A stretch of DNA of 64,000 nucleotides from Eledone cirrhosa (lineage: Eukaryota). The notes beneath the pieces are model-generated. The model did not search any database. It was not told the DNA's origin and was given only the letters and a program-made list of their open reading frames with translations. The stretch is taken from assembly GCA_964016885.1 (NCBI GenBank), contig OZ024741.1:284642001-284706000 (forward strand), given 5' to 3'. The position numbers and the translations under genes are program-made. Numbering within the stretch: the stretch's first letter is position 1; every line of letters starts with the position of its first letter. Positions 27,063 to 37,654 of this stretch are shown here, one piece after another.

Positions 27063-27212
27063 GTATATATATATATATATATAATGGGAAAATGTATGAC
27101 CACGACAGCAAAACTCAAGCCGTTTCGACGGCTATTTCAGTCCAGAAATAGCCGTCGAAACGGCTTGAGCTCTGCCGTCGGGGTCATACATTTTCCTATA
27201 TATATATATATA

Positions 27213-27600
27213 TGGTGATTTCCGGTCGGGATATTACTGACAGGATTCTCTCTCTTCACCAAGTTGTAAAGAAGGTTCGTGAAAAGTACCAGGAACTGTT
27301 CATGGTCTTTGTTAATTCGTCACTTTCAATCACAATGCTCCCTGGAAAATCCTCAAAAGCTTGGCATATGCTGAATCTTATTATGCTTTTCACGAGGGTA
27401 TGAAAGCATAATTACGTCAAATGGTGACTGCCTTGAATCCTTTTGTGTCACAAACCGTACGAAGCAGGGTTGTGTCATGGCTCCTGTTTTGTTTGCTTTG
27501 TTCTCCTCAGTAATGCTCCAGTATGGATTTAGTGACTTAGACACTGGTGTGGAATTTGAATTTCGTACATCTGATGGGTTATAGAACCATCAGACATCCG
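27213..27600 (+). pseudogene. Degenerate RTE-like RT fragment
   Basis: SGRDITDRILSLHQVVKKVREK..LFMVFV; KQGCVMAPVLF. Confidence 0.75.
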
Positions 27601-29228
27601 AGCAAAGAAGGAGGCCTACGAAACTTGGCTAGGCAATAAGTCCTCCTTCGTGCACTTGCAGAACAAATAGGCACAAAATGTCACGACAGAGACAGTAAAG
27701 GTGTCCAAAGTTAAGACATAGGAGGACATTGTGATTTAAGGTGGGATTCAACTTACTTCAGATCAGAGAATAAAGTGTTCTGGCAGACCATCCGCTGACA
27801 TAGTAAGAAGTCCTCCTCCACACCTACTATAGGGAACTCGCCTGGAGATCTTCTCTCTTCGAAGTGGTGTATCCTCAAGAGAATAATTTGCTGATATCCT
27901 AAACCCGGTTACAACAGCATCTTCTGATGTATACGAGATGCATCTGGTAGCGATGATTAATCTCTTGGAGGCTAATGTCACAAGAGCAATTAAAGACCTA
28001 TTAATTTATATAGAGATCCTGAAAGGATGAAAAGCAAAGCTGGTCCCGACAGGATTTGTACTTAGAACGCAGTATGCCAGAATAAATACCGAAGCCTTTT
28101 TAATGAGAAACGCTAAATATTCCATCATAACTAAACACTACTAAACCCTCTACAATGGCTCTCGACAATTTCTACGACTTCCATCGAAAATATCACCGAT
28201 GGTTTCTAGTTTAGACTCCGGACCAGAAAATTAGGTTGAGGGGAAAATGGATTATATCGACCTAGTATTTTAATGGTACTTTATCTTTCGACCACGGAAG
28301 AATGAAAAGCAAAATTGATAATGGCAGGATTTGAACTGCAATGCATTTGTCCGACTATCTAAACATCCGTCCTAATGAGAATCATGATATTAATAATACA
28401 AAAAGGGACGGGGGATTGGTAGTATCGGTAGAGGGTCGGACGCCATGCTTTGCAGCATAGAGTTTGACCCTTTACGTTCTGAGATCAAATCCCGCCGAGG
28501 TTAACTTTGCCTTTCATCCTTACGGTGTCGATAAAATAAAGTACCCGTCACGCACTGGGATAATTGCTAGCCTTGTGCCAAAAGTAGAAACAATTAATAA
28601 TACATTAAATGCTTTATGGATAACGAAAGAGAAAACGAACGATAGACCAAAGTAAAATGGTAGAATACAAACATATACATACACATGCACGCACACAAAT
28701 ACATATCTATATACATATATAAGTACACACACATACATATATATGTATATGTATATATATATATATATACACATGTAAATTCACACACACATATACAAAC
28801 ACACACACACACAGACACACATAATATATATATATATATTATGTGTGTGTGTGTGTGTGTGTGTGTGTGTGTTTGTATATGTGTGTGTGAATTTACATGT
28901 GTATATATATATATATATATATATAACGAAGGAAATGTGGTAAGGAACCAGGTGGACCATAACGCACCAAAGTACTCAATACTTTAGGTAGTAGAGTGGG
29001 TAATAGGAACCAGTAAGACCCCGACGGCTGAGCTCAGGCCGTTACGACGGCTAATTCTGGACTAAATTAGCCGTCGAAACGGCTTGAGCTCAGCCGTCGG
29101 GGTCTTACTGGTTCCTATATATATATATATATATATATATATATATATATATATATATATATATATATATATATATATATATATATACATATATAACAAT
29201 TCCTTTGTTATATATATATATATATATA

Positions 29229-34960: not shown

Positions 34961-35005
34961 GTAACGCAAAGGGTTCGATTGAATCGACCTCCGCCCATAT
35001 ATATA

Positions 35006-36384
35006 TCTATCATCATTCTCTATAAAAGGCAGAATGTTGTTGTTGTGTGTGTGCATGTTCCATGTTTATACATTTGCACAATTTCAAACCGCTTCGACTC
35101 AAAGTCTGTAAGAATGTTGTAAATGGTCTAACTTAGGCCAATGACTATTTATTTATTTCAAAATCACCCACAATTACGGAAATAATCGATAAAACTAAAT
35201 ACAATACAATGGCACACGTTTAGTCGTTAAGTCCTTAGCTCTCAATCTGATTAAGGCCACGATAATCACAGGGTGTGGTTGGGGCAAGATTGTGCTCATA
35301 CCGAGGATGCATCTTTTCCCATCAGGAGCAGACCTACCTTTCACATTTCGGAGGTCCCAGTTCCTGGTTAGGCCATGCTTCGCAATGTCAATTAACAAAG
35401 CGCAGGGGAAAACACTGTCTGTCGCGGGAATACATTTGGGGGAGCCGTGTTTCTCTCATGGTTAGCTTTACGTTGGCTGCTCGCGTGTTGGCAGCAAGAG
35501 TGATGATTTCGCGTTCGTTCCGCAAGGAAAAACAAAAGACATTGTGTACAAGGAGATTTTATAGGATTACCTCGATTCCTAATTTTATAACTTTTTATTT
35601 TTTTTATTTCTGCCTTGTCGTGAGTACTTTCTAAGTAGGTTAACTTTCATTGCAGTGCACTGGACACTCCCCACCACCGGCCGTACAAAGGCTGATTCTC
35701 GCGGCGTTACAAAGCTGCATTGCAACTCCGACCCTACCCAAATATCAGCCGTTGCTCCTCACCAACCCCCGTTTGGTGGGCCTCGGAGGACCGTGGACAG
35801 GTTAGTATTTCACCTCCGTACGACTCTCAAACGGTGAACAATGCTTTAATGACGGGATTTACATTTTTAGGCGGTTCCCTGCAATTACTTTACACTTCAC
35901 CAACACCTGGCCTCCGCTCAGCTCTATTTCCCTCCCTCCGTCGGCACAGCAGCAGGCTCATCTTCTACGTCCGACGTACATGATGCACCAACCATACAAT
36001 GATCCCTCTTCCTCTATTTTGGTTGTCATAATTCGACAATGTTTTTCAGGCCCCTGTTTGCGGTTCCCTCACTCCACCCCCTCCCCGTTAAAACATGTCA
36101 TGCAGAACAACTCCATCGCAGCTCTGTTGTTCGGTTGGCATCGTCTACGCGCTTGTTGCGCAAGTACTGTGGAACAATAAATTTCAACACTTCTTTGCAC
36201 AGAGATAATATCCATAGGCGAAACTACAATTGTCACTGCTGGTGCAGCTCCTGCTTCGGCAGTCCAGGTCTGCAATTCATTCACCCAGTGCCTGGCAGAC
36301 AAAAAAGTGATGCCATAAAATGGGTGGTGCAACCTAACTTTGGTAACTTACTGACCCCGAGCAACGCCGGGCTTTAATGCTAGT
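35006..36384 (+). mobile_element. Internally deleted Helitron retaining the Pif1 helicase C-terminus (about 35205-35565)
   Basis: NGTRLVV..IPRMHLFP..PFTFRRSQF.VR.CFAMSINKAQGKTL..FSHG*LYVGCSRV, read by hand (not in the ORF track). 5' TC start; 3' hairpin CCCG(agcaacgc)CGGG followed by CTAG|T. Confidence 0.88.
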
Positions 36385-37654
36385 ACATATATATAAATCA
36401 TACAAAGTTGGAATTCCTTTTATTAATATAATCTTCTATACACAATCATACACACCCATGTATATTTCTCTCTCTCTCTCTCTCTCTCTCTCTCTCTCTC
36501 TCTCTCTCTCTCTCTATATATATATATATATATATATATATATATATATATATATATATATATATATATATACAGGGTGTCCCCCCAAAAGGTACACACA
36601 CTTTAACAGCATTCTAATAAATATTTAGAGAGTTGGATGAAATAGTATTTCGTTACGGCCCTCTACATTCTGCTTTCAAATCCCTCCGATATCAATTTTG
36701 CCTTTCATCCTTCCGAGGTTGATAAAACAAAGTAACAATAAAGTTCTGGGGACAGTATAATCGACATTTACTTCCTCTCTCCAAGGTGGTCCCCTTGGGC
36801 CTAAATTAGAAACTATCGTAGCTATTTTTATGACGAAAGGAGAAATTGTTTGCTGAAACTTTTAATCTGTGCTAATAATAAATAATACATTGGTTGAGAA
36901 TATGCCTCTTTATTATATATATATAGAAATAGCTTCTAAATGGCCAGAAATGTTTCATATGAAATATCAATACAACCATTATTGCGTCTTCTCTGCATTT
37001 TAGTCTTTGTATTTAATGGTATTTACTATTATAACTATATGTATGTGAGTATATATATATATATATATATATATATATATATATATATATATACTCATAT
37101 ATATATATATAGGAAAATGTATGACCCCGACGGCAGAGCTCAAGCCGTTTCGACGGCTATTTCTGGACTGAAATAGCCGTCAAAACGGCTTGTGCTCTGC
37201 CGTCGGGGTCATACATTTTCCCATTACCCACTCTACTACCCTAAGTATTGAGTACTCTGGTGCGTTATGGTCCATCTGGTTCCTTACCACAACTCCTTCG
37301 TTTTATATATATATATATATATATATATATATATATATATATATATATATATATATATATATATATATATATATATATATATATATCATATATATATATA
37401 TATATATATCATATATATATATATCGGAGTTTAGCTTTGAACTATCTCTGTTATTGTATTAAATATATCATATATATATATATTATATATATATATATAT
37501 ATATATATATATATACACATACACACACACATATATATGTATATATATGTGTGTGTGTGTGTCTCTCTGTGTATCTAATCGTCAAGGTTTGCCCCCTTCT
37601 TTTGGGGTCTCGGGATACGCAATCAAGAAAACAAAGTGCCACGTGAGGTGCATC

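Follow-up and report, generated by a model that had tools for sequence, protein, structure and literature searches.

Inverted pseudo-LTR inserts of a Hydra-type Penelope-like element in the Eledone cirrhosa genome, and a probable origin from cDNAs primed at both ends of a cut

Palindromic inserts of the window

The window analyzed here is a 64,000-nucleotide stretch of the Eledone cirrhosa genome (contig OZ024741.1, positions 284,642,001 to 284,706,000), in which three short palindromes stand near 27, 29 and 37 kb. Each of them is two head-to-head copies, or arms, of the last 60-140 nucleotides (nt) of the pseudo-long terminal repeat (pLTR) of a Hydra-type Penelope-like element (PLE). Sequence inspection found them at the places given by an original prediction, which had been made from the letters of this stretch alone, and both flanks of the inserts are (TA)n. 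In all three, both arms hold the 3′ half of a hammerhead ribozyme without its 5′ core, as had been read there before. We describe the arms, the element from which they derive and the joints between them, and argue that such inserts probably arise when both ends of a DNA cut prime a cDNA.

Positions within an arm are counted from +1, the A of AGTCC, which is the base where many arms begin. In the 37-kb insert, a short, tail-less arm of subfamily A lies on the minus strand (37112..37169), runs from +1 (AGTCC) to TTCC/TA (the slash marks the end of the arm) and supplies a 6-nt "loop". The long, tailed arm on the plus strand (37170..37302) starts at +7, is joined bluntly to the short one and reads, in order, the 3′ strand of stem II, GAAA (mutated here), stem III, the cleavage triplet, the 3′ strand of stem I and a tail of about 80 nt. 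Folding of this copy gives z = -15.6 against shuffles. In the 29-kb insert, of subfamily B, the long, tailed arm is on the minus strand (28925..29067), extends to -4 and is the source of the "loop"; its partner, a short plus-strand arm (29065..29115), begins at +8 and shares a 3-nt microhomology with it. The 27-kb insert joins a short plus-strand arm beginning at +1 (27139..27196) to a minus-strand arm beginning at +7 (27084..27138), whose end is the next TA, 5 nt into the tail; this is either a cut-back long arm or an arm primed at the TA 5 nt inside the tail. The resulting +1/+7 junction is that of the 37-kb insert read on the opposite strand. TGGACT stands on the plus strand whether the long arm lies on the left (29 kb) or on the right (37 kb), as noticed before.

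The palindromes had been described as centred on stem II. On the right side of the central hairpin one does indeed read the genuine stem II 3′ strand; its left side, however, is antisense sequence of the second arm, and in parent copies the natural 5′ strand of stem II is found some 33-44 nt further upstream.

The parent element

The genome holds at least 48,542 arms, this being the number of exact matches to a 29-nt arm core across its 3.0 Gb (0 for the reversed core, used as a control), and full-length parents were found as well. One locus reached through a junction match (L095; loci are numbered with L) has the start of an open reading frame (ORF) between two arms, and its use as a query yielded 1,051 candidates. 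In most of 29 further loci fetched, the arm or its tail lies directly before the 5′ untranslated region (UTR). Nine loci were extended and show, at varying completeness, a pLTR with tail, the ORF, the 3′ UTR and a second pLTR; six of them have a 3′ pLTR that ends at the short site, one has a 3′ pLTR that extends to the tail end, and three carry inverted long arms upstream of the element. The arm thus adjoins a PLE ORF upstream and recurs at its 3′ end. The features of endonuclease-bearing PLEs are present, namely a partial-tandem pLTR, an inverted 5′-truncated copy and a tail at one end, and a TA run follows within 140 nt downstream of 152 of the 157 arms examined. The Penelope-like origin with a hammerhead and a (TA)n target, which had been proposed from the window, is supported.

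A single ORF encodes reverse transcriptase (RT) with a GIY-YIG domain at the C terminus, seen as RT motifs followed by VIY..YIG in the broken frames of L252 and L259, with one cysteine between the GIY and YIG equivalents. A Pfam search of these ORF fragments and a PDB search of the RT fragment gave no match; 18 homologues were found at 34-53% identity, one of which (44% identical) has a weak GIY-YIG match at E 0.012, below the cut-off. Reading the ORF by eye, we noted RWR, SDKT, the linker CNCPDRSMC and CNLC..E..N..CKH, and no CCHH. The published Hydra clade (PMC8557442) shares with it RW(K/R), DKT, a CxCX5C linker, the lack of CCHH, and CxxC and CxH around E and N, and also the C-terminal GIY-YIG, the (TA)n target and a pLTR hammerhead; the present family departs from the parts of that description used here in its hammerhead core, which is U3-A8 rather than canonical, and in copies that run to tens of thousands. 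From its ORF motifs, we class the parent as a Hydra-type PLE. The label "Neptune" was dropped after the same comparison.

The hammerhead in parents and stubs

A pattern search across the genome recovered 4,944 copies with the 5′ core UUGANAA (TTGANAA in DNA, with all four bases at N7), in the order stem I, TTGANAA, 5′ strand of stem II. Copies carrying the upstream half do exist, as the original prediction had asked of them, although their core is UUGANAA and not the CUGANGA it had named. CTGANGA occurs within 32 nt upstream of an arm 32 times, and the 30 cases viewed are junction accidents, fillers or a neighbouring family, none of them natural; TGANGA-GTCC has 19 matches, all junction products. 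An Rfam scan of the window returned no hammerhead at E <= 1, only microsatellite-driven miRNA matches below gathering scores.

In an alignment of 11 sequences from three subfamilies, 89.7% of the cells in stems are paired. Subfamily C differs from A/B at both bases of three stem II pairs, with the pairing kept, all changes being in two related C rows. The loop II region that stem II encloses measures about 33 nt and contains +1, which precedes the 3′ strand by 7 nt. Predicted folds of the parents give a three-way junction for A and B, and only A exceeds its shuffles (z -2.6, -0.4, -1.5). PLE hammerheads with a U3-A8 core have been published (PMC4209133), and that set shares with ours the core covariation, a large helix II with an unpaired base at its 5′ end, a palindromic helix III and two motifs on opposite strands; the difference is that our stubs keep the 3′ half only and that stem II encloses about 33 nt. 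By these features the parent pLTR is a type I hammerhead of the U3-A8 variant, with predicted cleavage. The stubs have neither the 5′ core nor the 5′ strand of stem I in cis. No pile-up of arms at the hammerhead cut was seen among the few truncated arms inspected; the arms of L175 and L229 may begin there, a position confounded by microhomology.

One tailed and one tail-less arm

Our survey took the first 100 core matches (75 loci after removal of 6 duplicates) and 60 stretches of 10 kb at even spacing, together with the window. Removal of one tandem duplicate and one overlap left 100 units; of these, 55 are head-to-head pairs in which each core is intact. In every one of these 55 a tailed arm is joined to a tail-less one; under a stricter call of the tail the rule holds in 52 of 54, with 2 ambiguous, and it also holds in 6 of 7 long inverted pairs. 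The 3′ ends fall into two sharp classes, 75 of 157 arms ending at TTCC/TA and 59 at the tail end. Arm lengths had been reported to differ, and they do; however, they are not free but belong to two fixed classes set by the 3′ end.

The two arms of an insert share their subfamily variant, as first noticed in the window: 39 of 42 classifiable pairs agree (13 could not be classified), against a mean of 11 and a maximum of 20 in 5,000 shufflings. The stem I haplotype is discordant in three pairs, two of them by one base. Concordance also follows if one source locus dominates in a germ cell. Inserts that join an arm to an inverted piece of a different PLE family are rare (L032, L031, L041, L046), and such chimeras show that two RNAs are able to take part. 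In L031, L041, L046, L032 and L037 (around 1300-1650) the sequence opposite the arm derives from another PLE family, one that bears a hammerhead or an ORF. A whole two-arm insert is tandemly duplicated across a short TA run in L132 (268-671).

Long arms that have no TA at the short site are found at 37218-37223 of the window and in L004, L013, L021 and L022, and short arms ending at that site are their partners. These are five distinct inserts, selected for likeness to the 37-kb copy. That such arms are still paired with short arms suggests priming by position and not by pairing with the target.

Pairs of this kind could in principle be made from a single cDNA by fold-back self-priming, in which the cDNA, once at the 5′ end of the RNA, folds back and serves as its own template; the second arm would be trimmed by the endonuclease at an inner TA, and later asymmetric deletions of the hairpin tip would place the "loop" on one arm or the other. 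Self-priming has been proposed for head-to-head pLTRs (PMC3846280). It would account for one long plus one short arm and for the 39 of 42 concordant pairs, and a few perfectly symmetric junctions (L200, L212, L250) are of the form it predicts. However, the short arm holds bases absent from the long arm in 21 of 55 pairs and in 898 copies of one junction. A complete short arm may also stand next to a partial tail only, as at 40896-40993 of the window and in L176, L177, L211, L213, L236 and L238; an extra G can be present on both arms (L296/297, L299/300, L306); and foreign or discordant arms occur. We consider a fold-back origin unlikely.

Junctions between the arms

The 6-nt "loop" is the 3′ end of the loop II region and comes from one arm only, whichever extends further 5′. 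Among the 55 pairs this is the long arm in 26 and the short arm in 21, with equal reach in 8. The +1/+7 junction exists genome-wide in both senses, 898 copies having the long arm and 725 the short arm from +7, which agrees with the prediction of a loop in either orientation. No constant meeting point, which had also been claimed, was found. Junctions vary from copy to copy; 13 of 55 are blunt, and others show an overlap of a few bases or contain fillers copied from an arm, the ORF or an A run. In L193, L324 and L345 the filler is 15-25 A directly at the 5′ end of an arm. An inverted short arm, a sense piece of the ORF and then a second long arm make up the inserts of L095 (970-1650), L146 (1310-2375) and L260 (1330-1640), which are template jumps within the element's own mRNA.

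Beyond the three palindromes, the window contains copies of single or partly joined arms. A long arm on the plus strand (20133..20269) starts at +5 and is preceded by (TA)n and then by a filler of about 39 nt (20094-20132), which occupies the expected place of the inverted arm. A short minus-strand arm (25649..25706) runs from +1 to TTCC/TA with (TA)n on either side. A short arm of subfamily C (40896..40954, minus strand) ends at +1 of the AGTTC type; one extra C adjoins this end at 40955, where a copied cap would presumably place it, and then come the final 38 nt of a tail (40956..40993, plus strand), a long arm truncated within its tail. All three had been listed before, at 20135, 25648 and 40897, and said to stop at stem II. 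They are present, but these copies end at +1 to +5, within loop II and past the copied 3′ strand of the main stem II helix.

These ends bear on the idea that the ribozyme hairpin is the joint of integration, with two cDNAs that halt at stem II and are held together by base pairing between its two strands. The hairpin's right half is true stem II, and some junctions have 1-4 nt of local self-complementarity, for instance the 3 nt of the 29-kb insert. The product of such annealing would enclose the natural loop II and switch strands at the 5′ strand of stem II. Searched as an exact pattern for subfamilies A and B, this product has 1 match genome-wide, where an ORF-derived filler has the same letters by chance, and a general route of this kind is refuted. 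The 5′ strand of stem II is almost never reached by paired arms, so they have no stem II complement to anneal; some junctions are blunt and many hold fillers. We consider this joint very improbable. The idea of two cDNAs from both ends of a break remains the best reading of the inserts, whereas the stem II joint that accompanied it has to be given up.

The same junctions speak against a fixed 190-nt structure copied as a unit, either as a DNA element resembling a miniature inverted-repeat transposable element (MITE) or from a short interspersed element (SINE) master. At least 40 places match the 37-kb insert nearly whole at 91-100%, a set ranked by likeness and biased accordingly. However, there are no terminal inverted repeats at both ends, and the insert consists of pLTR sequence from an element with RT and endonuclease. 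A MITE-like unit is refuted because the junctions differ copy by copy, and a master of either type has a negligible probability. MITE identity was likewise rejected, as no fixed internal sequence lies between terminal inverted repeats. Neither of the observations by which the prediction could have failed was made, since the 4,944 copies have a 5′ core and the junction varies, unlike that of a MITE.

A common 5′ stop and an extra G

Of the 110 paired arms, 89 start in the range -6 to +8 around TT/AGTY (slash before +1), a conserved motif of loop II that we take to be like a TCAGT-type initiator. Subfamily C differs in loop II and in stem II, and its arms nevertheless begin at this motif. The base before +1 is G in 6,300 copies genome-wide and A in 1,041, and the natural base at this place is T (21/26) or C (5/26). 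By a lenient test on the first 30 loci of each kind, the extra base does not continue the other arm in 10/30 G and 5/30 A loci; it is found on the other arm too in 5/30 G loci (the three inserts with G on both arms) and in 0/30 A loci. At a control start, +5, the preceding base is G in 9 and T in 31 of the first 100 matches listed. The T class is the +1/+5 joint, which one-base pairing of a cap-derived C could produce.

From these sequence patterns we infer that +1 is an RNA polymerase II start at the initiator-like TT/AGTY inside loop II, and the non-genomic G before it would be a copy of the mRNA cap. An extra G derived from the cap marks full-length junctions of L1 (PMC11702581), and the Penelope pLTR holds an internal promoter (PMC2377424). 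Two further elements lie in the region of the putative start, in the parents. Subfamilies A, B and C (L261-L290, L192, L214) all retain a CC(A/T)6GG box, which has the shape of an SRF/CArG site, immediately upstream of stem I and some 65 nt ahead of +1. Near -30, A and B but not C have a TATA-like box, which was set aside as evidence for a promoter.

A stop near +1 could have another cause if two cDNAs were end-joined after RT stalled on the upper helix of the extended stem II or on its tertiary contact. Predicted folds of parents A, B and C do set +1 on the 3′ strand of the upper helix, and starts are scattered over -6 to +8. RT has, however, already passed the stronger main helix of stem II by then, the stop is constant at TT/AGTY across subfamilies with different loops, and a stall leaves the excess of G before +1 without a reason. 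We regard it as improbable, a little more so than fold-back.

A proposed run-off of two cDNAs at a capped RNA end

We hypothesize, with a probability of roughly 70%, that both cut DNA ends prime cDNAs at two fixed sites of the RNA, that these cDNAs reach the capped 5′ end and that they are then end-joined. After a cut in (TA)n, each end would prime one cDNA, one per reverse transcription site, within the 5′ UTR of the mRNA, and the cDNAs would extend over some 60 and 140 nt, as far as the cap. The two classes of 3′ ends would then be two internal start sites of reverse transcription. Ordinary end-joining would seal the cDNA ends, the less-trimmed cDNA supplying the "loop". Because the start at +1 is inside loop II, the hammerhead copy at the 5′ end of this RNA would have no core and no cleavage in cis. 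Two-ended priming is favoured, rather than self-priming, by the single start site at each end, by the ability of either arm to reach further, and by a 5′ stop that is common to the arms and has a cap-like base.

Several points weigh against this reading. The arm starts were placed by extension without gaps, and a few of them (L174, L202) are wrong. In the long inverted pair L286/L287, which may have arisen by later duplication, both ends are short and carry the same private changes; one arm among the 157 stands opposite another short end. Fold-back would lead one to expect concordant arms just as much. As for the cap, 19 of the 30 G cases can be read as a plain join to a G of the other arm, and the excess of G is small in loci not selected by their junction (G 7, A 4). 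The predicted upper helix is small and weak; as +1 is on its 3′ strand, a structural stop keeps a low probability. About one tenth of the arms (4,944/48,542, as pattern counts) extend far past +1, which implies that other templates, such as read-through or tandem RNA, are in use too.

A more detailed model can be offered tentatively, and taken as a whole we would sooner bet against it than on it. In this model a dimeric PLE protein would hold one capped RNA and both (TA)n break ends and carry out a double run-off with strand displacement, the cap base aiding the joining. One cDNA would be started at each of the two fixed 5′ UTR sites, and the downstream RT would displace the upstream cDNA.

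Comparison with known systems

L1 inversions are not known to duplicate the RNA segment, whereas both arms here cover the same one. Twin priming of L1 (PMC11702581) is otherwise alike in that both DNA ends are primed, the inversion junction is end-joined and an extra G corresponds to the 5′ end of the RNA.

Among PLEs, head-to-head inverted pLTRs, a one-sided tail and palindromic junctions have been published (PMC3846280; PMC8557442). Those elements and ours have in common a 5′-truncated inverted copy, partial tandem parents of the form pLTR-ORF-pLTR, and AT-rich or (TA)n targets. In comparison with the parts of those reports considered here, our arms mostly have 60-140 nt each and the tail about 80 nt, against 30-40 nt reported; the pairing of long with short is nearly strict, and both arms stop at one putative capped start. 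Self-priming or endonuclease resolution was proposed there (PMC3846280; PMC8557442), and the origin of the inverted repeats and of the one-sided tail has been called open (PMC8557442; PMC11167929).

A biochemical precedent is Poseidon PAc of Anolis, for which both DNA strands are cut and extended in vitro, two internal start sites of reverse transcription bound the tail, the protein is a predicted dimer and the template is uncut hammerhead RNA (PMC11167929). The portions of that work consulted report no strand difference in start site, whereas here there is one start site per end, and they do not follow the fate of the two cDNAs; PAc also belongs to a different clade.

Non-LTR retrozymes (10.64898/2026.07.22.740005), like our stubs, are short, non-coding and related to PLE pLTRs. 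In the accessible account they are direct tandem repeats with whole hammerheads, and ours are inverted pairs with half hammerheads. The stubs have no direct tandem units with a whole hammerhead, and retrozyme identity was rejected. For PLEs, a literature search that covered few subscription papers found neither cap run-off nor the use of a single start site at each end described; relevant material may be contained in the supplements of PMC11167929 (Fig. S2) and PMC8557442.

Neighbouring inserts of other families

Head-to-head inserts of other kinds are also found in the window. An 878-nt inverted repeat at 56590-58757, 100% complementary, has its arms 67 nt apart, lies between TA runs and carries extra sequence on one side; it is probably a young head-to-head insert of another family. 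A small one at 63447-63541, also of another family and with relatives in L125 and L012, has a canonical CTGACGA hammerhead core on one arm, and its stem III is completed by the flanking (TA)n. A degenerate palindrome of about 150 nt follows a TA run at 11652-11803. In the 664 kb made up by the 60 sampled 10-kb stretches and the window, 45 inverted-repeat inserts lie between TA runs; 12 belong to the present Hydra-type family and 33 to others, and the extra sequence is one-sided in many.

Significance

The family is real, abundant and new, and its kind is already known; the putative cap run-off is the new part, and the inverted layout has been published. The claim of a ribozyme as the joint of integration should be dropped. 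The countable constraints of the family name a template and sites for direct in vitro work. Were the dimer model correct, the genome would preserve in these stubs the traces of about 50,000 double run-offs, and the stubs would map a transcription start inside the element's own hammerhead, with an mRNA 5′ end unable to self-cleave. For the genome of E. cirrhosa, tens of thousands of palindromes that look like SINEs or MITEs are stubs left by a single Hydra-type element, and their annotation should say so.

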